Assembly: GCA_964530915.1 (NCBI GenBank)
Contig: CAZHCK010000001.1
Coordinates: 4,012 to 68,011 of the forward strand
Reading direction: 5' to 3'
DNA: 64,000 nt
Source of the DNA: an uncultured Cloacibacterium sp.
GTDB lineage: Bacteria; Bacteroidota; Bacteroidia; Flavobacteriales; Weeksellaceae
Made by a program: the position numbers and the translations under genes. The notes beneath the pieces are model-generated. The model made no database searches. It was not told where the DNA came from and saw nothing but the letters and a program-made list of their open reading frames with translations. Of the stretch, positions 3,357 through 24,283 are shown piece after piece; within the stretch, counting starts at the first letter, position 1; every line of letters begins with the position of its first letter.

Positions 3357-3830
3357 ATGTGTTGTGAAATGTTGCGTAAAATAATCAAAGATATTAAGCC
3401 TTGCTGCCTTTCTAATTCTAATGTTGCAGAAGAAAATGGAAAAAAAATAACGTTTTCAAAATTCAAACATAACGAAATTTGTCGACTAAAATTAGATAAA
3501 TGTCACATAGATGAAACTAAAAAAAAGTGCGACTACTTATTTTACACTTGCAAAACCAAAGAAATACATTTAGTTGAGTTAAAAGGGACAGATGTTGAAT
3601 ATGGATGTTTACAAATAATAGAATCACATAAAAGAATAGCTATTGACATTAAAGAAAATTTTAATGAAAGCGCAAAAGATTATATTATTGATGATATAAA
3701 ATTTAAAGGTTATATTGTTTCTTCTTCTGTACCAAAATCAACTGAAATTAGATTCAGAAAATTACAAGAAAAAATTTATAGAGAAAAAAAAATTTTTATA
3801 AAAAAATATCATAATTATTGCTGTGTATAA
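3357..3830 (+). CDS. Hypothetical protein with PD-(D/E)xK nuclease-like motif
   Basis: KKCDYLF...IHLVELKG..D...CLQI pattern; starts 2 nt after the ATPase stop. Confidence 0.65.
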   Translation: MCCEMLRKIIKDIKPCCLSNSNVAEENGKKITFSKFKHNEICRLKLDKCHIDETKKKCDYLFYTCKTKEIHLVELKGTDVEYGCLQIIESHKRIAIDIKENFNESAKDYIIDDIKFKGYIVSSSVPKSTEIRFRKLQEKIYREKKIFIKKYHNYCCV

Positions 3831-3906
3831 TTCTTATTGTTTTGCATTTGTATATTTTTAATTTAACCTTCCCCAAAAATTCCCATCAAAGAGCTAAAAC
3901 CAGCTT

Positions 3907-4980
3907 ATGAAAATTTTGAAATTTCTACCTCTTTTAGTGTTACTCCCGTTTTTGAGTTGCAGCAGTAATGAAGATGAACCTACGCCAACTCCCGCAGAAA
4001 CGATGTATTTCCCTAATAATACAGACAACAATTGGGAAACCAAATCTATTGCCAGTCTCGGTTGGAATCAAAGCGCAGTGCAACCGCTTAAAGATTTTTT
4101 GGCAGAAAAACATTCTAAATCTTTTATGATTTTGGTAAACGGTAGAATTGTGATGGAAGAATATTTCAACGGGCATTCTGCTACCGCAACTTGGCCATGG
4201 AACAGCGCTGGAAAAACGTTGGTTTCTACTACCACAGGAATTGCACAACAAGAAGGTTTACTGAACATCAACAATAAAGTTTCTCAATATTTAGGAAACG
4301 GCTGGACTAGCGAACCTCTGGAAAAAGAAAACCTCATCACGCCAAGACATTTACTTACCATGACTTCGGGCTTAAATGACGAAAGCAATTGGGTAATCAA
4401 ATCTAACCTCACGTATTTGGCAGATGCAGGAACGAGATGGTCTTACAGCAATGTTTTTCAGAAATTAATAGATGTAGTTGCCGCTTCTAGCAACCAAACT
4501 TTTGAGAATTATTTTAATGCCAAACTGAAAAATAAAATCGGGATGGATGGTTTCTGGAATTTCGGGACTATTTTCACCATTTATCATAGCAATACCAGAA
4601 GTATGGCGAGATTTGGACTGCTTTTCCTGAACAAAGGAAAATGGAAAAATGAACAAATCATCAATGAAACTTATCTGAACGAAGCCATTTCTACTTCTCA
4701 AGATATCAATCCTTCTTACGGTTATCTTTGGTGGCTCAATGGAAAATCCAAATATATGGTTCCAGGTTCGCAAACGGTTTATCCCACTGCTTTAGTTCCT
4801 AATGCTCCTGCAGATATGTATGCAGCAATGGGCGCTGAAGATCAAAGAATTTACGTAATTCCTAGTAAAAATATGTTGGTCATCAGAATGGGTGATGCTT
4901 CGGATCCACAGAATCCTAATTTCGCATTGTCTGGTTTTGATGCAGCACTTTGGGATAAAATCAATGCGATGATAAAATAG
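3907..4980 (+). CDS. Serine hydrolase (beta-lactamase/AmpC family) lipoprotein
   Basis: Lipobox FLSC, SxxK motif WNSAGKT, LLTMTSG, YSN, YGYLWW. Confidence 0.85.
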   Translation: MKILKFLPLLVLLPFLSCSSNEDEPTPTPAETMYFPNNTDNNWETKSIASLGWNQSAVQPLKDFLAEKHSKSFMILVNGRIVMEEYFNGHSATATWPWNSAGKTLVSTTTGIAQQEGLLNINNKVSQYLGNGWTSEPLEKENLITPRHLLTMTSGLNDESNWVIKSNLTYLADAGTRWSYSNVFQKLIDVVAASSNQTFENYFNAKLKNKIGMDGFWNFGTIFTIYHSNTRSMARFGLLFLNKGKWKNEQIINETYLNEAISTSQDINPSYGYLWWLNGKSKYMVPGSQTVYPTALVPNAPADMYAAMGAEDQRIYVIPSKNMLVIRMGDASDPQNPNFALSGFDAALWDKINAMIK

Positions 4981-6452: not shown

Positions 6453-7874
6453 TTAACATTCTGCCACGTTCACGGCAACAGCTAAACCACCTTCAGAAGT
6501 TTCTTTGTACTTAGAATTCATGTCAAGAGCGGTTTCCCACATAGATTTAATCACATCATCCAGAGTAACTCTGGCTTTAGAAGGATCACTTTCTAGCGCG
6601 ATGTGACAAGCAGTAATCGCTTTCATCGCGCCCATAGAATTTCTCTCAATACACGGAATCTGAACCAACCCGCCAATTGGGTCGCAAGTCAAACCAAGGT
6701 GATGTTCCATCGCAATTTCTGCCGCCATCATTACTTGAGCTGGAGTTCCGCCCGAAATTTCTGTCAAACCAGCTGCCGCCATCGCCGAAGAAACACCGAT
6801 TTCTGCTTGGCAACCTCCCATCGCTGCAGAAATGGTTGCATTTTTCTTGAAAAGCGTACCGATTTCTCCCGCTACTAAAATAAATCTGATGATATCTTTT
6901 TCTGAGTTGAATTCTGTAAAAGTTTGAGAATACATGAGCACCGCAGGAATTACACCACTCGCTCCGTTAGTTGGCGCCGTGATAATTCTACCAAAACTGG
7001 CATTTTCTTCGTTTACTGCCAATGCAAAACAAGAAATCCAACGGGTAATTTGATTGAAATCTTTTGGAGAATTTTTTACCGCAGCAAACCATTCGTTTAT
7101 ATTTTTGTAAATAACGTCCTCGCCTAATAATTTTCGATTGAAATCTGCAGCTCTTCTCGTTACATTAAGTCCACCCGGTAAAACCCCTTCTTTATTAACA
7201 CCTTTGTAAATGCATTCTTTTATTTGTTGCCAAATGTAAAGCGCTTCACTTCTAGTTTCTTCTTTGGTTCTCCAAGCTTCTTCATTGATGTACACTAAAT
7301 CAGAAAGTCTTGCAACGCCTAATTTTTCACAATATTTGGAAATATCTTCGCCTTTATGACAAGGATAAGGTGTTCTAATACAGTGACTTTCTATAGAATT
7401 ATCTTCTTGCGTCGCTACAAAACCGCCACCTACAGAATAGTAGTCTTTTTCTAAAATTTCGCCGTTATTAAAAACCGCTTTGAAAATCATTCCATTTGGG
7501 TGAAAATCTAAAGATTTTTGCATATTGAGCACCAAATGTTTTCCATAAATAAAAGGAATTTCTTTTTCAGCACCTAAAATCAATTTTCCAGAATTTTTGA
7601 TTTCGGCAATTTTAGCATCTATTTTATCGGTATCTATTTTTTTAAAATTTTCGCCGCTTAAACCGAGCATTCCGGCAATATCTGTTCCGTGACCGATTCC
7701 TGTTTTGGCAAGCGAACCAAAAAACTCTACATACACTTCTGCCACCTCTGAAATCTGGTGATTTCTTCTGATTTCGCTCAGAAACATTTCCGCTGCATTC
7801 CAAGGTCCCATCGTATGAGACGAAGACGGCCCAATTCCTACTTTTATGATTTCAAAAACCGAAATACTCTCCAT
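6453..7874 (-). CDS. sdaA: L-serine ammonia-lyase (Fe-S dependent)
   Basis: [48 protein letters not shown]. Confidence 0.95.
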
Positions 7875-8032
7875 ATTGATTATTGATAAATGATTTTTAC
7901 AAAGATAAAATTATTAGGCAAACCATAAAAAATTATTCATCCTTAAAATTTTGAAAATACACCTCCAAATTTTGTAACAGATAAGACACTTATTCTCAAT
8001 TAATTTGCTCTTAAAAAAACAACTCATTTCCT

Positions 8033-9703
8033 ATGAATATCATTCCCGAAAATCTAAAAAAATACCAGAAATTCATTTCTTTGGTACTCAAATATAGAAA
8101 CAGCGATATTTTATCGGCTGCTTCAGACAAAGCGCTTGATGAATTGGCAGAAGACCAAGAACTTTCTGAAGAATCTAATCGCTATACTTCGCCAGAAGAA
8201 TTGGTAGAAGACCTTAAAAATATGGGGCCGACTTATGTAAAAATCGGGCAAACCCTTTCTACAAGACCAGATTTATTGCCAGAACCTTATTTATTGGCAT
8301 TGGCTTCTCTACAAGATGATGTAGAGGAAATTCCGTATTCTAAAATTCAAAAAATGGTGGAAGAGGAATTGGGAACGAAAATATCCAAAGCTTTTTTGAG
8401 TTTTGACACCCAACCTTTGGCTTCGGCAAGTATTGGGCAGGTTCACAAAGCAGTTTTGCGCTCTGGAAAAGAAGTAGCGGTGAAAATTCAAAGACCGGGA
8501 ATTCGTAAAAACTTCATCGAAGATTTAGACACTTTGAAAGAATTATCAGATCTTGCTGTAAAACATTCTAAAATTGCCAAAAAATACGGAATAGACGATG
8601 TTCTAGATGAGATGAGACACATCCTTATTCACGAGTTGGATTATAGTAGAGAAGCTCAAAATCTGATTGCTCTGGGCAAAAATCTAGAAAAATTTGAGCA
8701 TATTGTGATTCCTCAACCTGTTTTAGACTACTCTACTTCTAAAATTCTGACAATGGATTTTGTAGAAGGTCAAAAAATCACTTCCGTTCATGGAATTCAA
8801 AAAACGGAAACCGATTTTTCGGTGCTCATTGATGAATTGGTAGAAGCTTATCTTCAACAGATTATTTTTGATGGTTTTGCACATGCAGATCCGCATCCTG
8901 GAAATGTACACCTAACCAAAGACCGAAAAATTGCTTTGATGGATTTAGGAATGGTGGCGAAATTCAGTCCGAATTTGCAAGAACAAATCTTGAAATTGCT
9001 CATTGCCATTAGCAAATACAATGGCGAAGAAGTTTCTAAAATACTTCTAGAAATTAGTCAAGATGAAAAAAACGCAGATATTATCGGTTTCAAAAAAGAA
9101 ATCAACCGAATCGTTCTAGATTCTCAGAACAGAAATGCCGCAGAAATGCAAACGGGGAAAATGCTCATCAGAATGAATAAAATTGCCGCAGAAAAAGGAA
9201 TCAGAATTGCGGTAGAACTGAATATTCTTGGTAAAATTTTATTGAATTTAGACCAAATCGTAGCCGTTCTCGCTCCTCAATATGATTTGGCTGAAAGTAT
9301 GAAGCAGATTTTGGAGAAAATGATGGTCAAAAAAATGGCTCACGAAGCCCAACCAGAAAATTTCTTTGCTCAATTGATAGAAACCAAAAAATTAGCCGAA
9401 AATCTTCCGGAAAGACTCAATAAAATCACCGAAAACTTAGCTCAGAATCAGTTTGAGCTCAAAATAGATGCTTTAGACGAAGAACGATTTACCGATGCCT
9501 TCCAAAAAGTAGCCAATAGAATTTCTATTGCACTCATTATTGCTGCATTAATCATTGGCTCATCTCTATTGATGAGGGTTCCTAATTTTCAAATTTTTGG
9601 AATTTCGATAGCGATGTTTTTCTTCATCATTGCATCGGTTTTTGGATTATGGCTCGCTTATAAAATGGTCATGAAAGACGAAGATTTTAAAAGGAAAAAA
9701 TAA
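8033..9703 (+). CDS. ABC1/UbiB/AarF family atypical kinase
   Basis: MGPTYVKIGQ, ASASIGQVH, VAVKIQRPG, HADPHPGN, DLGM; C-terminal TM helices. Confidence 0.9.
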   Translation: MNIIPENLKKYQKFISLVLKYRNSDILSAASDKALDELAEDQELSEESNRYTSPEELVEDLKNMGPTYVKIGQTLSTRPDLLPEPYLLALASLQDDVEEIPYSKIQKMVEEELGTKISKAFLSFDTQPLASASIGQVHKAVLRSGKEVAVKIQRPGIRKNFIEDLDTLKELSDLAVKHSKIAKKYGIDDVLDEMRHILIHELDYSREAQNLIALGKNLEKFEHIVIPQPVLDYSTSKILTMDFVEGQKITSVHGIQKTETDFSVLIDELVEAYLQQIIFDGFAHADPHPGNVHLTKDRKIALMDLGMVAKFSPNLQEQILKLLIAISKYNGEEVSKILLEISQDEKNADIIGFKKEINRIVLDSQNRNAAEMQTGKMLIRMNKIAAEKGIRIAVELNILGKILLNLDQIVAVLAPQYDLAESMKQILEKMMVKKMAHEAQPENFFAQLIETKKLAENLPERLNKITENLAQNQFELKIDALDEERFTDAFQKVANRISIALIIAALIIGSSLLMRVPNFQIFGISIAMFFFIIASVFGLWLAYKMVMKDEDFKRKK

Positions 9704-16427: not shown

Positions 16428-17423
16428 TTATTCTTCATAATTTTTATATGCAATTCTAAGTTTATGCATTATTCTCTTCCTTAACTTAGTAGGTTGAATA
16501 ATTTTAATAGATTCTCCAAAGCCTAATATCACTCTTTCTAATTCAAAATTAATTTGAACAGAGATTTTAAAAACCGTTCCATCTTCTAATTCTTCAATTA
16601 TTTCTTGAGTATGATGAAAAGGTTTTGTTTTTACATATGGAGCATTATTTTTATCAATCCAAAAAATCACATTCATGGGTCTATTCCTTTGAGAAACAGT
16701 AACACCAATTACTTCCTTAAAAAAATGGTCTCCATCAATATTTTTATCGATATACTCTGCATTAATTTTCTCAATACTAATAACTCTATCTAAAGCTAAA
16801 GTAAGATAAGTCATTTCCTCCCATGCAATTAAAAACCATCTGTTATTATATTCTTTCAAAAGTTGAGGATGAATGATATAGTAATTTGTTTCTCTAGCTT
16901 TAAAAGATTTATATTCGATTTTTAAAACATTTTTATTGAGGATAGCATCGTATAAAGTGTCTATAAATTCCAAGCCTTTTAATCTCTCATTTTTGTCTAA
17001 ATGAATAATGGCTTTTTGTTTTGAAGCATAAACAGAATCTTCTAATTTTTGAATTATGCCATTCATTTCCTTAAAAATAGAAAAATCTTTAAATTGTTTT
17101 AAAATTTGTACCGCATCATTCATTACTTTAATATCATTCTCATTTACTGGAATATTCTTAATGCTAAAATCAGGCTCAGAATACTTATAAAATTTTTTTT
17201 GAAAAACTTCAATAGGTGCATTATAACCCAGCTTTTCGCTGCGCATATTCTGAATATCTAACTGAACTGTTCTTTTACTCACTAAATCGTATTTCCCCTC
17301 GTATTCATACAAAGCATCAGAACAAGCGTCTATTAAATCTTCTAAAGTCCAGAGTTTAGTTCTATTTCTTAAGCAATTATCAATGGTTTTATAACGAATT
17401 AAAGCGTTTTTGTTTGAGGACAT
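16428..17423 (-). CDS. WYL-domain transcriptional regulator (HTH-WYL-WCX, PafC-like)
   Basis: MSSNKNALIRYKTIDNCL N-terminus, SKRTVQLDIQNMR HTH, HPQLLKEYNNRWFL, LALDRV, ILGFGESIKIIQP. The start is probably the internal ATG. Confidence 0.92.
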   Translation of the reverse strand: MSSNKNALIRYKTIDNCLRNRTKLWTLEDLIDACSDALYEYEGKYDLVSKRTVQLDIQNMRSEKLGYNAPIEVFQKKFYKYSEPDFSIKNIPVNENDIKVMNDAVQILKQFKDFSIFKEMNGIIQKLEDSVYASKQKAIIHLDKNERLKGLEFIDTLYDAILNKNVLKIEYKSFKARETNYYIIHPQLLKEYNNRWFLIAWEEMTYLTLALDRVISIEKINAEYIDKNIDGDHFFKEVIGVTVSQRNRPMNVIFWIDKNNAPYVKTKPFHHTQEIIEELEDGTVFKISVQINFELERVILGFGESIKIIQPTKLRKRIMHKLRIAYKNYEE

Positions 17424-17446
17424 CTTAAAAATTTTAATAAAATTAA

Positions 17447-18895
<1,449 letters not shown>

Positions 18896-18924
18896 AATTT
18901 TTTAAAAAAATTAAGATTAATATT

Positions 18925-19024
18925 GGCGCAGTAGCTCAGATGGTAGAGCAACGAATCACTTTTCGCTTTTGGCAAAAAAAGTTCCTAAATAAGTGTGTCA
19001 CAGGTTCGAGTCCTGTCTGCGTCT
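18925..19024 (+). ncRNA. tRNA-like (YrlA/Y-RNA-like) ncRNA with intact acceptor, D and T arms and a 49-nt replacement of the anticodon/variable region
   Basis: Acceptor GGCGCAG/CUGCGUC, U8A9, D arm GCUC-AGAUGGUA-GAGC, T arm ACAGG-UUCGAGU-CCUGU. No 5-bp stem with 7-nt anticodon loop. No encoded CCA. Confidence 0.8.
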
Positions 19025-19028
19025 TTTT

Positions 19029-19204
19029 AAACTGATAAAAAAGTTCCTATATTTGTAACTGTTAAATACTATACTTTTCATCAGTTTAAAAAATAAATAA
19101 AGGCAAAAGGAGTTCCTATTTGACTTTCCACATTTACTCCCCGCTTTTTTATAAATATAGGTAAAAGGAGTTCCTATACATTTTAAAATTTACTCCTCAC
19201 TTAT
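19029..19204 (+). ncRNA. Three tandem stem-loops sharing an (A/G)(A/G)AGU-UCCUA...ACU(U/C)(U/C) motif
   Basis: Hairpins 19029-19087, 19099-19148, 19157-19204; GTTCCTA at 19043, 19112, 19170 (and 18981 in the tRNA-like RNA); outer stems differ in sequence but still pair. Confidence 0.72.
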
Positions 19205-19220
19205 TTTAAATATTTAAACA

Positions 19221-20978
19221 ATGAAAACATTAAAATTATTTTATACAGTTCTCGCAAAAGAATCCGGTGAAAAACCTTTTATTTCTGATGATGGTTTTGT
19301 AATTGACTCAAATGCAATCTGGGCAAAAAAAGAAATCATAAAGTACTTTTCTAAAGAAAAATTAAGCGGAAAAGATCTAAACGCTACCTTTCATAAATCT
19401 TGGAAAACCATAAAATACAGCACTAGAAACCAATTGTTTGTTGAGCAAGTTTTGCATTATATTTCTACATATGGAAGTAATTTTCAAGATGAAATTTATA
19501 TTCCAAATGAAATTTTGAATATTCCTGATGCAAAGCTTTCTTTCAAAGTAATCAAAGGTATTTCTAAAGAAGAAATGATTGAAAAATGCTTGAATTTACT
19601 GAATTCAGGAATCGCACTACAAGAAGAAACAATAGATGATGTATTTTCAATTTTAATAGACGAACTTGATTATAAATTCACTGGAAACGAGAACATTAAG
19701 AATAAGGAAGCCATTGCAAAAATTGCAGATTTATTCCATATCTATCCTGAAAATCCAGTAGAATTTTTCAGATATATCATTTATAAAAGTGCGCAAACTA
19801 CTTTATTAATTAAAAATGATGAAGTGATTTCGGCAATAAAAGAAAGCAAATTCAATCCTTCTCAAGCATTTAAAGATTTTGGATTAGAAAAAATGGCTGA
19901 AATTTTCAACCGATTCAAACCACTTTTTTTGGCTTTCAAAAATAAATGTCCAAAAACCATTAATGCGATTTCAAAATTATCAAAAAAACATCATAAACCT
20001 TTGGTTTCTAATCCATTGAACGATGCTACCAATCAAATTCTTACCGAAAATGATTTGCATTGGTTAGAAAACGCAACTCCATTTGCTTTGTTCAAGGCTT
20101 TATCTGCTTGTTATAATAGAATGAACGGTCAAGATACATTTGCCTACAGAATTAGAAACGGAAAATCTTGGGTACAAAAAGATGTGGTGAAAAATGTAAA
20201 TAAAAAAAATTACGATTTTATTCTACAATTTCTAAAATCTAAATTCGATTTTACAAATCTGAAAATTTACATTCCAGAAGAGGTGAAATATGCATTGCCT
20301 ACTTCCGAAAAAATGTTTGTAGGAAATATCCCAACAGGAAGCAGATTTTATGGCAAAAAATTAGCAATTGGTATTTATTGGGAAGATTCTTGGGGAGCAC
20401 ATGATTTGGATTTATCGGGTCTAAATATTGGTGGGAAAATTGGCTGGAATTCATCCTACAAGCAAGATGAAGGAAACTTAATGTATTCTGGTGATATGAC
20501 TTCGGCTCCAAATGGTGCAGTAGAATATTTGTATGCAAATAAAGGTTTGAACTACCCGACTTTAATTTTAAATAGTATTTACAGTGGAGATTCAAACTGT
20601 GATTACAAAATTATTGTAGGTAAAGGCGAAAAAATTTCTAAAGAATATATGATGAATCCTAATGCAGTTTTTGCTGAAATAAAATGCAAATCCGTGCAAA
20701 GACAAACCGTTCTTGGAATGCTTTTGCCAAAAAACGACAAACAATGTTTTGTTTTGTTGAATTTCGGAGCAGGACAATCCCGAGTTTCTGGAACCAGCAA
20801 ACTTTCTACTTTGGCTACCACTGCTTTGTATCAACAGTGGAACAGACCTCTCACTTTTAATAAATTAGTAAGTGAATTGGGAGCTCATTTGGTTTACTAT
20901 AAAGATGGAGTAGATTATGATTTTTCTTTAGAAAATTTAGAAAAAGATAGTTTTATAAAGCTGTTCCAAAGAAACTAA
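19221..20978 (+). CDS. Large hypothetical protein: helical N-terminal region plus C-terminal TerD-like domain (possible Ro/TROVE-related protein)
   Basis: N-terminal NATFHKSW...EQVLHYISTYG; C-terminal IGIYW...HDLDLS and YSGDMTSAP..AVEY resemble TerD-family motifs. The TROVE relationship is inference. Confidence 0.7.
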   Translation: MKTLKLFYTVLAKESGEKPFISDDGFVIDSNAIWAKKEIIKYFSKEKLSGKDLNATFHKSWKTIKYSTRNQLFVEQVLHYISTYGSNFQDEIYIPNEILNIPDAKLSFKVIKGISKEEMIEKCLNLLNSGIALQEETIDDVFSILIDELDYKFTGNENIKNKEAIAKIADLFHIYPENPVEFFRYIIYKSAQTTLLIKNDEVISAIKESKFNPSQAFKDFGLEKMAEIFNRFKPLFLAFKNKCPKTINAISKLSKKHHKPLVSNPLNDATNQILTENDLHWLENATPFALFKALSACYNRMNGQDTFAYRIRNGKSWVQKDVVKNVNKKNYDFILQFLKSKFDFTNLKIYIPEEVKYALPTSEKMFVGNIPTGSRFYGKKLAIGIYWEDSWGAHDLDLSGLNIGGKIGWNSSYKQDEGNLMYSGDMTSAPNGAVEYLYANKGLNYPTLILNSIYSGDSNCDYKIIVGKGEKISKEYMMNPNAVFAEIKCKSVQRQTVLGMLLPKNDKQCFVLLNFGAGQSRVSGTSKLSTLATTALYQQWNRPLTFNKLVSELGAHLVYYKDGVDYDFSLENLEKDSFIKLFQRN

Positions 20979-21069: not shown

Positions 21070-21095
21070 AAACTCCCGAATTAATTCGGGAGTTT
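21070..21095. terminator. Bidirectional terminator between the islet and pnp
   Basis: aaactcccgaattaattcgggagttt perfect palindrome between convergent genes. Confidence 0.8.
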
Positions 21096-21101
21096 CTATT
21101 T

Positions 21102-23288
21102 TTATGCTTGTTCTGTTGGTTGTTCTCCTTCTGGTTTTGGAGCGTCTCCTTCAGTTCTTGGCTTTTGTTCTGGTCTTGGTGGTCTTGGTAAAAGAACTTT
21201 TCTCGAAAGTCTCATTTTCTTACGATCATCATAACCCATAAATTTCACTTCTACTTCATCACCTTCTGCATACGGAACTTTATCTAATCTCTTCCATTCG
21301 ATTTCTGAGATGTGTAGTAAACCTTCGGTTCCTTTAGCAATCGCTACGAAAGCACCGAAATCCATTACTTTTACTACTTTACCTTTATAAACAGTACCTA
21401 CAACTGGTACGAAAGTAATTTCGTTAATTCTAGCAATTGCAGCATTGATTTTCTCGCGGTCAGTTCCAGAGATTTCAATTCTACCAATTTCGCCCATTTC
21501 TTCAATAGAGATTACAGTATCCGTATCTTTTTGAAGCTGTTGGATAATTTTACCACCAGGTCCAATTACAGCACCTATGAAATCTTTAGAAATTTCTAAA
21601 ATTTCCATTTTCGGAGCGTGAGGTTTCACATCTGCTCTTGGTTTATCGATGGTTTTAAGGATTTCTCCTAAAATATGTAATCTACCTTCTTTTGCTTGAT
21701 TTAGTGCAGTTTCCATGATATCCATTGTCAAACCTTGAATTTTAATATCCATTTGACAAGCGGTAATTCCATCTGCAGAACCTGTTACTTTGAAGTCCAT
21801 ATCACCCAAGTGATCTTCGTCTCCTAAAATATCAGAAAGTACGGTGAATTTACCAGATTTAGGGTCAGTAATTAATCCCATTGCAATACCAGAAACTGGT
21901 TTTGTAATTTGTACACCAGCATCCATCAATGCAAGAGTTCCTGCACAAACAGTAGCCATAGAAGAAGAACCGTTAGATTCTAAAATATCTGAAACTACTC
22001 TGATGGTATAAGGATTTTCGTGAGGAATCATTCCTGCTAAAGCTCTTTGAGCTAAGTTTCCGTGACCAACTTCTCTTCTTGAAGTTCCTCTTAGAGGTCT
22101 TGCTTCACCAGTTGAGAATGGTGGGAAATTATAGTGTAGGAAGAATTTTTCGTCATAATTGATGGCAACAGAATCTACCATGTTGGCATCTTTCACTGAA
22201 CCTAAAGTTACCGCTGTAAGAGACTGAGTTTCACCTCTGGTAAAGATTGCAGAACCGTGAGCTCCTGGTAAATAATCGATTTCTGACCAAATCGGACGAA
22301 TCGTTTTAGGATCTCTACCATCTAATCTGATTCCTTCGTTTAGAATCATTTGACGCATTGCTTCTTTTTCTACATCGTGGTAGTAAATTTTAGCAAATGG
22401 TTCTACGTCTGCTCTTTCTTCTTCTGAATATTGAGAAAGGAATTCTTCTAAAACGGCAGCAAATTTTTCGTGTCTTTCTTCTTTCGCAGAAGGAGTTTTT
22501 GCTACGTTGTAAACTTTATCATAACATTCTGCCCAAACTTTCTCACGAATTTCTTCGTTGTGCGTTTCGTGGCAGTATTCTCTTTTGGTTTGAGATGCAG
22601 GAATTCTCGCTGCTAATCTTTCTTGTGCTTCGATTTGAACTTTAATTTCTTCGTGAGCGTATTTAATCGCTTCTAGCATTTCTGCTTCCGAAATTTCTTT
22701 CATTTCACCTTCTACCATTACGATAGAATCTTTGGTAGCACCTACCATGATATCTAAATCTGCTTTTTTAAGATTTTCGATACTTGGGTTGATAGAAAGT
22801 TCACCATCAATTCTTACTACTCTTACTTCAGACATTGGTCCGTTAAAAGGAATATCTGTAATTGCAATTGCAGCTGAAGCGGCTAAACCAGCTAAAGCTT
22901 CTGGCATTACTTCTTTGTCGTAAGAAATTAGGGAAATCATTACTTGAACTTCTGCGTGGAAATCTTCTGGGAAAAGCGGACGAAGTACTCTGTCTACTAA
23001 TCTCATGGTAAGAACCTCATCATCAGAAGGTTTAGTTTCTCTTCTAAAGAAATTTCCTGGGATTTTACCACCCGCATAGAATTTTTCTCTGTAATCTACT
23101 GTAAGAGGTAAGAAATCTACCCCTGGATTTGCGTCTTTGTTGGCTACAACTGTTGCAAGGAGCATCGTTCCGCCACATTTTACTACTACAGAACCATTAG
23201 CTTGTTTCGCTAATCTTCCTGTTTCAATGGAGACTTCTCTCCCGTCTTTCAATTGAAATTTTTCAATAATTGCTTCTGGAGCATTCAT
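21102..23288 (-). CDS. pnp: Polyribonucleotide nucleotidyltransferase (PNPase)
   Basis: [48 protein letters not shown] (VIGPGGK) and S1 domains. Confidence 0.97.
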
Positions 23289-23385
23289 AAAATTTACTGT
23301 CTTGTGCAATCCGTATTGATTGCGTTATTATTTAAACTCTTTAAATTTTCGATGGCAAAGATACGGAATTTAAAAAAGTTATAAC

Positions 23386-23414: not shown

Positions 23415-23702
23415 TTACATTTTCTCTTCTGGATTTCTACTGGTATGAAAAATGGAATAAATAATTATTTCCTCATCATGAATTTCAAATAGTATTACAA
23501 AAGGAAATTTTATGATGTACGCTTCTCTTATATTATTAAATCTACATGAAAAATGTTTTGGGTTTTGCTCTATTTTTTCAAAATATTTCTGAAGAACAAT
23601 GAGAAATTTCTTCCCTAAATCTTTAGATTTAGATTCATAATATTCATAAGCATCTTCCATTTCAAAAACTGCTTTATCCCTGAATATTAATTTATATTTC
23701 AT
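23415..23702 (-). CDS. RelE/ParE family type II toxin
   Basis: A..EMEDAYEYYE...LGKKF...IEQNPK.F...REAYIIKFPFVILF..I.IYSIFHTSRNP. Confidence 0.85.
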   Translation of the reverse strand: MKYKLIFRDKAVFEMEDAYEYYESKSKDLGKKFLIVLQKYFEKIEQNPKHFSCRFNNIREAYIIKFPFVILFEIHDEEIIIYSIFHTSRNPEEKM

Positions 23703-23706
23703 GAGA

Positions 23707-23934
23707 TTATTTGGTTTTCTCTTGGATTCGTTTTTTTACTTCGTCATAACTAAAGTATTTTCCTTCTCCGCTTAAATATTCCGCCCTTCTTTCTGCCACA
23801 ATATTGTATTGCTCTTGAGAAATATAGCCTTGTTCCTCGTTTTTGAAAGCTTCTCTCACCTTTTTTAAAACAGATTCACTTTCTGTCTGTAAAAGCAATT
23901 TCATGAGTTCTAATTTTTCTAAACGAATATCCAT
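23707..23934 (-). CDS. Antitoxin (addiction module component)
   Basis: 75 aa directly upstream of the toxin; C-terminal ISQEQ..VAERR.EY..GE....SYDEVKKRI pattern; own TATATTTG promoter just upstream. Confidence 0.8.
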   Translation of the reverse strand: MDIRLEKLELMKLLLQTESESVLKKVREAFKNEEQGYISQEQYNIVAERRAEYLSGEGKYFSYDEVKKRIQEKTK

Positions 23935-24013: not shown

Positions 24014-24283
24014 TTATTTTCTAATACCAAGTTCAGCAATGATAGCTCTGTATCTATTGATGTCTTTGTTTTTAAGATAATCTAACAATCTTTTTCTTTT
24101 ACCTACTAATTTAACTAGAGATTTCTCAGTAGCATAATCTTTGTGGTTTTTCTTTAAGTGACCAGACAAATGGTTAATTCTGAATGTGAATAAAGCGATT
24201 TGTCCTTCTGCAGAACCAGTGTTTGCAGCGTTTCCTCCGTGTTTAGCGAAGATTTCTGATTTTTTTTCTGATGTTAAGTACAT
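24014..24283 (-). CDS. rpsO: 30S ribosomal protein S15
   Basis: NTGSAEGQIALFT..INHL..HL..N.KD...SL.KLVGKRKRLLDYL. Confidence 0.97.
   Translation of the reverse strand: MYLTSEKKSEIFAKHGGNAANTGSAEGQIALFTFRINHLSGHLKKNHKDYATEKSLVKLVGKRKRLLDYLKNKDINRYRAIIAELGIRK

Follow-up and report, generated by a model that had tools for sequence, protein, structure and literature searches.

Introduction

In the rsr-yrlBA-rtcBA operon of Salmonella, the protein Ro60 is paired with the small RNA YrlA (PMC4201824, PMC7790460). The Ro60-binding motifs are GNCGAAN0-1G in bacteria and GGUCCGA in vertebrates (PMC4201824), and the Ro60/Y RNA pair is also found in phages (PMC7824862). The present work concerns a 585-residue protein, hereafter the target protein, encoded at 19221..20978 (+) in a stretch of 64,000 nucleotides from an uncultured Cloacibacterium sp. 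(contig CAZHCK010000001.1), referred to below as the window. The target gene follows the gene of an RtcB-family RNA ligase, from which it is separated by a gap of 325 nucleotides holding a tRNA-like element and three hairpins. These hairpins are copies of one RNA module, and the gene and the module are paired in the genomes of very distant lineages in a near-obligate manner. We give an even chance to the reading in which the target protein is the dedicated protein partner of this neighbouring conserved module, with a cargo or tRNA-mimic role.

Results

The target gene belongs to a large family of unnamed proteins

The open reading frame starts with an ATG codon and is flanked downstream by a terminator-like hairpin (21070..21095 (+); an 11-base-pair stem followed by a T run in the terminator scan), and then by the convergent pnp gene. 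A reading of the DNA letters without database searches (below, the sequence-only reading) had quoted four motifs in this protein, and all of them were found in the 585-residue frame: NATFHKSW at residues 54-61, EQVLHYISTYG at 75-85, HDLDLS at 394-399 and YSGDMTSAP at 422-430. Conservation was read from an alignment of 57 relatives of 32-60% identity. In the C-terminal part of the protein, G384, W387, D395, D397, S423, G424, D425, A433 and E435 are invariant; in the N-terminal domain, this is the case of N161, E163, R184, N248 and R312, whereas N54, F57, H79 and Y80 are conserved in at least 90% of the sequences and two histidines, H79 and H258, are near-invariant. The quoted motifs are not due to chance, because they hold residues that are invariant or at least 90% conserved among the 57 relatives. 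At least 1894 homologues were present among the scored candidates, and the family amounts to 1360 clusters at 50% identity (878 below 1e-30), nearly all of them full length. The target frame is thus a real gene.

All the relatives are unnamed. The target protein had no family match in Pfam, NCBIfam, PADLOC or PHROGs and none in the PDB by sequence or profile, and no account of the protein family or of its hairpin RNA was found in the accessible literature and libraries; the Jug-phage TerD paper deals with ordinary TerD proteins.

The hairpins share a covarying helix with an invariant junction

The three hairpins of the window were scored with a covariance model, R1, which was built solely from Bacteroidota copies. 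Copy 1 (19031..19085 (+); 33.8 bits, E 2e-7) is the most divergent. Copy 2 (19099..19148 (+); GGC-AAA-AGGAGU-UCCUAU ... ACUCCC-C-GCU; 55.1 bits, E 4e-14) is a row of alignment A2. Copy 3 (19157..19204 (+); 65 bits, E 4e-17) is the most conserved and ends 16 nucleotides before the start codon, a position relative to the ATG shared by nearly all Bacteroidota loci and many viral ones. In the whole window, these hairpins are the sole R1 matches at E < 0.01, which highlights the specificity of the model. The location of the target gene directly after RNA elements, as described in the sequence-only reading, is borne out by the tRNA-like element at 18925-19024 and the hairpins at 19031-19204, all situated 3' of RtcB.

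The module consists of a lower stem of 3-5 base pairs (GGC/GCC, GGU/ACU or GAC/GUC), a bulge in which a 5' AAA lies opposite a single 3' C, and an upper stem of 6 base pairs. The latter varies with compensation (GGGAGU/ACUCCC, GAAAGU/ACUUUC, AGGAGU/ACUCCU, AAGCGU/ACGCUU and others) except for its last two pairs, G-C and U-A, which are invariant and lead into the GUUCCU junction. After the upper stem, UCCUAU is invariant in the Bacteroidota copies, and the bases past GUUCCU vary in phages. There is no constraint on the apical loop, whose length ranges from 13 to about 80 nucleotides. The sequence AGTTCCTA is present four times between rtcB and the target gene in the window, and 2-4 times in the ~300 nucleotides upstream of the target gene in 49 of 50 Bacteroidota species, including eight loci without rtcB.

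Over 88 distinct copies, the proposed pairing was found in 98.1% of the cells, against 85.0% in shuffled alignments (none of 500 reached the observed value) and 43-60% with slid partners. At six of the eleven pairs both partners change, for a total of 155 compensatory cells, and G-U is tolerated in the helix (at one pair, GU occurs 58 times and GC 29 times). The copies of one locus differ in stem sequence and carry their own compensatory changes, as diverged paralogues do. The module is therefore a structured RNA helix. Rfam had no family for it and returned tRNA alone. Three known elements were compared with the module and set aside. An anticodon-loop mimic (UUCCUAU, with anticodon CCU) and a T-loop are in conflict with a heptamer that is not closed into a 7-nucleotide loop, with the bases after GUUCCU, which vary in phages, and with the A and the C matching A58 and C61, which are adjacent where a distance of two bases would be required; a kink-turn would require tandem G-A pairs after the 3-nucleotide bulge, where none is seen.

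The module also occurs inside the tRNA-like RNA (18925..19024 (+); Rfam tRNA 43.9 bits with a 40-nucleotide insert, and an ARAGORN call). In this element, the acceptor, D and T arms are kept and the anticodon arm is replaced by a circularly permuted module at 18958-18987 (ACUUUU-C-GCU-UUU-GGC-AAA-AAAAGU-UCCUA). Besides the window, about 26 related loci have the permuted form; the equivalent tRNA-like element, of 107-114 nucleotides, scored 41.9-50.4 bits and lay above the Rfam tRNA threshold in 11 of the 12 loci tested. Furthermore, long-loop modules often hold a T-arm-like hairpin (GGUUCGAnUCC), in Bacteroidota, in the cyanophage S-CRM01 and in other viral contigs.

Gene and module travel together in bacteria and phages

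Almost always, the target gene is accompanied by 1-5 module copies on the same strand, usually just upstream. Outside the Bacteroidota, R1 matches were found beside homologues of low identity. Synechococcus phage S-CRM01 g174 (35% protein identity) has four modules upstream (6513-6968) and one directly downstream (8825-8878); S-CBWM1 gp22, from another Synechococcus phage (29%), has one module directly upstream and one inside the tRNA array, 2.4 kb upstream. In two phage-like metagenomic contigs (33-34%) the modules are directly upstream, as are the four modules of the cyanobacterial chromosome CP003946.1 (40%), and in phage Phass-1 (28%) five modules lie 1.3-1.7 kb downstream. 

A set of 80 viral loci was then collected from IMG/VR with a 12-sequence alignment of the target family. 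At E < 0.01, R1 gave 151 matches in these loci, all on the strand of the gene, and at least one match in 71 of the 80; five of the nine loci devoid of a match have no upstream sequence on their contig. As many as 144 of the 151 matches fall within 700 nucleotides of the gene, a zone that makes up 6.6% of the searched space. In an open-reading-frame clustering of the viral loci, no other protein family was common to more than 15 of 85 loci, and the conserved partner of the target protein is therefore an RNA. The proposal of a small-RNA partner made in the sequence-only reading is in agreement with these results, since gene and module stay together in Bacteroidota, in cyanobacteria and in many phages.

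Some features of these loci were noted in addition. Short annotated "hypothetical protein" genes overlap the modules of S-CRM01 (g173c; locus L052, 6788-6934, minus strand) and of Phass-1 (WIC39680.1; locus L056, 8995-9294), and these frames are probably not genes. The Phass-1 homologue (L056, genetic code 15) belongs to a stop-codon-recoded gut phage and adjoins a tRNA-Ser gene and a set of NAD-salvage genes (nicotinamidase, phosphoribosyl pyrophosphate synthetase and nicotinamide phosphoribosyltransferase). In two loci, an IS605 OrfB/TnpB-like gene (L139, 3289-4482; L140, 541-1734) is inserted between two modules upstream of the homologue, within a cluster of seven tRNAs.

The position of the modules raises the question of a role restricted to the transcript of the gene itself. 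The hairpins could be a tandem attenuator or translational operator, sensing another factor or the protein, in the absence of any trans-acting particle or scaffold. This explanation accounts for the location of 129 of the 151 viral matches and of nearly all the Bacteroidota copies within 700 nucleotides upstream on the same strand, for a last copy that ends 12-30 nucleotides short of the start codon, with a U-rich run after it, and for RNA-sequencing contigs that continue through the hairpins into the gene. It does not account for the modules found downstream (S-CRM01 8825-8878, 15 of the viral matches, and Phass-1), for the distant S-CBWM1 copy among tRNA genes, or for a module embedded in circularly permuted form in a tRNA-like RNA; the T-arm-like hairpins of some loops are not needed by a leader either. 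We consider a purely leader-type function unlikely, and prefer to see in the module the RNA half of a pair whose other half is the target protein.

The gene is frequently found beside tRNA arrays and RNA-repair genes

In both cyanophages, S-CRM01 and S-CBWM1, the gene stands within a tRNA array, and at least six tRNAs are present within 5 kb in 16 of the 80 viral loci. Arrays of 17-19 tRNAs directly precede the homologue in two Flavobacteriia chromosomes (L038 and L039). More generally, chromosomal arrays of 6-19 packed tRNAs, which resemble those of phages, were observed beside the homologue in L038 (2347-4132, Pontimicrobium sp.), L039 (2140-3858, a Flavobacteriaceae metagenome-assembled genome), L040 (7439-8105) and L045 (9222-9803). 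Among the 50 Bacteroidota loci, RtcB is encoded upstream in 41, a WYL regulator is present in 39, and one or two RlaP nucleotidyltransferases are encoded downstream in 34. RtcB was not found in any viral locus examined.

In the Marivirga locus L041, the homologue lies between two DUF5677 proteins (3592-4638 and 6791-7477), and a DUF559 endonuclease-like gene (8367-8786) is present between the two downstream RlaP genes. In L038, a weak tRNA-like match (6962-7028, 33 bits) separates the target homologue from a Band_7/SPFH gene (7571-8668), both lying just downstream of the homologue. In 2016, Burroughs and Aravind reportedly described an SPFH/Band-7 module with a cognate tRNA-like RNA in RNA-repair systems, and the L038 match may be such a Band-7-associated RNA.

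The protein combines a basic helical domain and a probable, divergent TerD-like domain

The target protein was modelled by AlphaFold2 with the 57-sequence alignment (predicted local-distance difference test, pLDDT, 92.5; predicted template-modelling score 0.91). In the model, residues 1 to ~345 form fourteen helices with a few short strands, residues ~372-520 an 11-strand beta-sandwich and residues 527-585 short helices. The N-terminal domain (residues 1-345; 19221..20255 (+)) is mostly helical, as the sequence-only reading had predicted for this region, and basic, with a median isoelectric point of 9.2 over the family; it offers a candidate RNA-binding surface. The C-terminal domain is acidic (median isoelectric point 4.85). 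On the basis of hhalign, Foldseek and the invariant residues, the putative TerD-like sandwich with its DLDLS and SGD...E motifs was delimited to residues ~372-525 (20334..20795 (+)), and secondary structure and alignment assign the C-terminal helices and tail to residues 526-585 (20796..20978 (+)). The tail holds a second D-x-D-[FL]-S motif, DYDFS, for which the family consensus is DIDLSxxxLxKD.

The sequence-only reading had also related the N-terminal domain to TROVE and Ro60, and had named an unrelated N-terminal fold as part of the outcome that would speak against its proposal. Pfam TROVE (PF05731) matched neither the target protein nor any of the 57 members at E up to 1. In an hhalign alignment with Ro60 of human, Xenopus and Deinococcus, the N-domain gave P = 0.064 over 64 columns and a probability of 0.9%, with a Ro60 profile that is thin (3 sequences). 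When the domain was modelled alone (pLDDT 88.7), the best Foldseek match in the PDB had E = 0.27, and the matches were generic alpha-solenoids (CRM1, 14-3-3, farnesyltransferase) with template-modelling (TM) scores of 0.24 at most; Ro60 (1yvp, 2nvo, 9nen) is in the searched PDB and was absent from the top 50. With the whole target model, nothing was found in the PDB below E = 0.01. Moreover, the C-terminus is not a vWA domain with its metal-ion-dependent adhesion site; an 11-strand sandwich that resembles TerD stands in its place. Pfam, hhalign and Foldseek being all negative, the relation to TROVE is not supported: none of the tests run places the target protein among the TROVE proteins.

For the C-terminal domain, a single planned comparison was carried out by hhalign with a TerD profile of seven sequences (TerZ, TerD, TerE and the C-terminal half of TerA from an E. 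coli plasmid, and three PDB TerD-family sequences). The alignment covered 129-131 columns, corresponding to TerD positions 21-176, with P = 0.0015-0.0028, against P = 0.44 for the N-terminal domain used as control; the reported probability is just 11-17% because the TerD profile is thin. Three motifs are in register: GLGWD of TerD corresponds to GVYWEN, DLDaS to DLDLS, and tGDNrTGeGdGDDE to YSGDxTxAPnGAxEY. Among viral models, Foldseek found full-length relatives in a Siphoviridae "putative tellurium resistant like protein" (E 1e-21), in Campylobacter virus IBB35 and in Lactobacillus phage LpeD, and a domain-level match in the TerD-like protein of Rhizobium phage RHph_Y65 (E 1.9e-5, TM 0.45); two further proteins of similar size had TM scores of 0.47-0.55. 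Pfam TerD (PF02342) did not match any of the 57 members at E up to 1, and the solved TerD chains 2kxt, 3ibz, 2qz7 and 2qng were not among the top 50 Foldseek PDB matches of the target model. As for the acidic TerD motifs, DLD and SGD are invariant in the target family and one glutamate, E435, is kept, GDGDDE being changed to APnGAxE. Taken together, the profile alignment, the motifs in register and the matches to phage TerD-like models indicate that the C-terminal beta-sandwich is a divergent, distant relative of TerD, as the sequence-only reading had suggested.

The pattern of invariant residues is also compatible with a catalytic protein. An endoribonuclease or an RNA-modifying enzyme acting at the GUUCCU junction could mature the small RNAs or the transcripts of tRNA arrays, or could make ends for RtcB. 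The invariant residues of the N-domain and its two near-invariant histidines would suit such an activity, as would the occurrence of the module in both normal and circularly permuted topology and that of the gene within tRNA arrays whose transcripts need processing. However, Pfam, NCBIfam, PHROGs, PADLOC and the PDB gave no similarity to a nuclease, a ligase or a modification enzyme, RtcB is missing from all the viral loci, and no joints or defined ends were seen in the RNA data, which are at contig level. An enzymatic role for the protein is, in our opinion, improbable; a binding protein dedicated to the module remains the preferred reading.

In Bacteroidota, rtcB, the RNAs and the target gene are on one transcript

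In the window, rtcB is located at 17483..18895 (+), with a probable start at the ATG of position 17519 (Pfam RtcB 3.3e-34). It is divergent from a gene for a WYL/WCX-domain transcriptional regulator (16428..17459 (-); Pfam WYL 1.2e-10 and WCX 6.1e-12), whose probable true start is the ATG at 17423. A candidate operator and promoter were read from the sequence at 17461..17497 (+), where TACGCA-N7-TGCGCA is followed by a Bacteroidetes-type -7 box, TACTTTG. In the rtcB-less loci L035, L041, L044, L048 and L050, TGCGCA-N7-TGCGCA and TACTTTTG are found ~100-150 nucleotides upstream of the first hairpin. The pair of half-sites is probably the operator of the WYL regulator. It was also observed where no WYL gene is present within 5 kb.

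Transcription was followed on assembled RNA-sequencing contigs, which show transcription and operon continuity, the ends and abundance of small RNAs being beyond their resolution. For an isolate, a Chryseobacterium-like organism (L023), one contig spans rtcB, the RNAs and the target gene, and in two runs the contigs start just past the equivalent promoter. The target locus itself is covered by wastewater metatranscriptome contigs. These results show that, in Bacteroidota, rtcB, the RNAs and the target gene are carried by one transcript, with a common candidate promoter and operator. Some metatranscriptome contigs (runs X10 and X11) diverge at 18883-18897, after rtcB, into a different hairpin (AAACTCCACTC...GAGTGGAGTTT), suggesting that related strains lack or replace the cassette formed by the RNAs and the protein.

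On the other side of the target gene, polynucleotide phosphorylase (PNPase) is encoded at 21102-23309 (-) and ribosomal protein S15 at 24014-24283 (-). In Deinococcus, Y RNA tethers PNPase to Ro60. Among the 50 loci, the adjacency to pnp is confined to Cloacibacterium and is therefore probably a coincidence, and the parallel with a Ro60-Y RNA-PNPase complex was set aside. Between pnp and rpsO, a ParE-family toxin gene (Pfam 4.7e-08) follows a 75-residue frame devoid of family match (23415-23934 (-)), an arrangement typical of type II toxin-antitoxin pairs.

Discussion

Two other explanations of the paired gene and hairpins deserve mention. The first is a type III toxin-antitoxin-like or abortive-infection pair, in which the upstream RNA repeats would neutralise a harmful protein, as ToxI does with ToxN. 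The arrangement would fit such a pair, as the protein gene is immediately preceded, on its own strand, by 2-5 structured RNA repeats with a U run after each, and so would the occurrence in bacteria and phages alike. Yet the copies are diverged paralogues with compensatory changes and not near-identical tandem repeats, the known type III toxins are three times smaller than the protein, which had no match to any of them in Pfam or the PDB, PADLOC gave no match, and the pair resides in the tRNA arrays of lytic phages and in a housekeeping-style repair operon. We regard this explanation as very improbable. Lastly, the repeats could act at the DNA level and be recognised, as binding sites or in the form of single-strand hairpins, by a DNA-binding or transposition protein comparable to the RAYT transposases of repetitive extragenic palindromic (REP) elements, a notion to which the flanking arrays of imperfect palindromes and the IS605 OrfB gene between the modules of L139 lend some colour, but which is scarcely tenable in view of the strict coding-strand orientation of all 151 viral matches, the tolerated G-U pairs, the module within an RNA scoring above the Rfam tRNA threshold, the transcription of the region and the lack of an HUH-type or other DNA-enzyme signature in the protein (Pfam, and Foldseek against the PDB).

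The reading that we favour, a protein dedicated to the neighbouring RNA module, can be put in the form of a model. The basic N-domain would clamp the bulged helix, possibly aided by a metal in the TerD-like domain. The variable loop would be the cargo, a tRNA-like body in one of the RNAs and a T-arm-like hairpin in others. With the loop as cargo, the particle would present tRNA mimics to tRNA-handling enzymes, or tether them, in tRNA repair or maintenance; in bacteria RtcB and RlaP are the candidates, and in phages the products of the tRNA arrays. Such a particle may act in a response to tRNA damage and, in phages, may protect the tRNA pools from host nucleases. Translational autoregulation by the protein is probably a further effect, provided by the copy that ends 12-30 nucleotides before the start codon. 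In its widest form, the proposal is more tentative and stands somewhat below an even chance: the protein and the GUUCCU bulged-helix RNAs might constitute a widespread and unrecognised ribonucleoprotein, both halves of which are unrelated to described ribonucleoproteins, guarding, repairing or delivering tRNAs in tRNA-targeting conflicts, in the tRNA arrays of phages and in the RtcB/RlaP operons of Bacteroidota.

Several points weigh against this proposal. The whole case is built on gene neighbourhood, covariation and predicted fold. Most modules could belong to the gene's own 5' leader, and much of the linkage is then explained by cis-regulation alone. Many viral loci have no tRNAs or repair genes nearby, and the link with tRNA repair is for this reason frequent and not universal. 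In the Foldseek comparison, the N-domain had no PDB relative and no recognisable RNA-binding fold, and the conservation of E163, H79 and H258 leaves room for an enzymatic role. Finally, RNA sequencing at contig level does not show the hairpins accumulating as separate small RNAs.

If the protein does bind the RNAs, the pair would be a new and common ribonucleoprotein, of ~1360 clusters, without annotation in Pfam, Rfam, PHROGs or the defence databases. It would give a handle on the companions of the large tRNA gene arrays in phages and on RtcB-dependent RNA repair in bacteria without Ro60-type systems. The annotation of the small "hypothetical" frames overlapping the RNA genes of S-CRM01 and Phass-1 would have to be corrected, and a first RNA-linked role would be assigned to a TerD-like domain. 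Direct tests are within reach, because binding and structure work requires no more than one protein and a ~50-nucleotide hairpin with defined invariant positions.

Comparison with known systems

With the TerD family (PF02342; TerD, TerE, TerZ), the target protein appears to share an acidic beta-sandwich of similar size in which G-x-x-W, DLD-x-S and [ST]GD...G..E are in register. Unlike these proteins, its domain stays below the detection of the Pfam hidden Markov model in all 57 members, just one conserved glutamate is left of the GDGDDE cluster at the second calcium site, and the domain is fused to a helical domain of 345 residues and is not part of a ter operon. With the type III toxin-antitoxin ToxIN, the common feature is an array of structured RNA units that immediately precedes the protein gene; here, however, the units are diverged, the protein is unrelated and much larger, and the context is tRNA and repair rather than abortive infection. 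The SPFH/Band-7 system is likewise reported to associate, in repair neighbourhoods centred on a ligase, a scaffold-type protein and its cognate non-coding RNA of tRNA-like form, but the protein family is another one and only the target family has the hairpin module.

In outline, and by analogy, the target protein and its RNAs may be a functional parallel to Ro60 with Y RNA or YrlA, the protein and the RNA motif being both unrelated. As in the Salmonella rsr-yrlBA-rtcBA operon, the protein gene adjoins small RNAs in an RtcB operon under a dedicated regulator, which is a WYL protein here and RtcR in Salmonella. Like Y RNA and YrlA (PMC4201824, PMC7790460), the RNA is modular, with a conserved bulged helix and a tRNA-like part, and is encoded beside the protein gene; unlike them, the tRNA-like RNA retains an acceptor stem of its own, with the module at the anticodon-arm position. 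Its motif is AGUUCCU(AU) with an AAA/C bulge, whereas that of Ro60 is GNCGAAN0-1G or GGUCCGA, and the Rfam Y RNA models did not match the module or the tRNA-like RNAs, for which tRNA alone was returned. Both pairs occur in phages as well (PMC7824862). In the target protein, as in Ro60, a helical domain precedes one that belongs to a metal-binding family; Ro60 (Rsr), however, has TROVE and vWA domains, whereas the N-domain of the target protein has no sequence or structural similarity to TROVE and its C-domain is apparently TerD-like. Scaffold proteins paired with a cognate tRNA-like RNA in repair contexts are already known, and there is a substantial chance that the ribonucleoprotein itself is wholly new. 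It would then represent, alongside Ro60/Y RNA, a third independent system combining a scaffold and a tRNA mimic.

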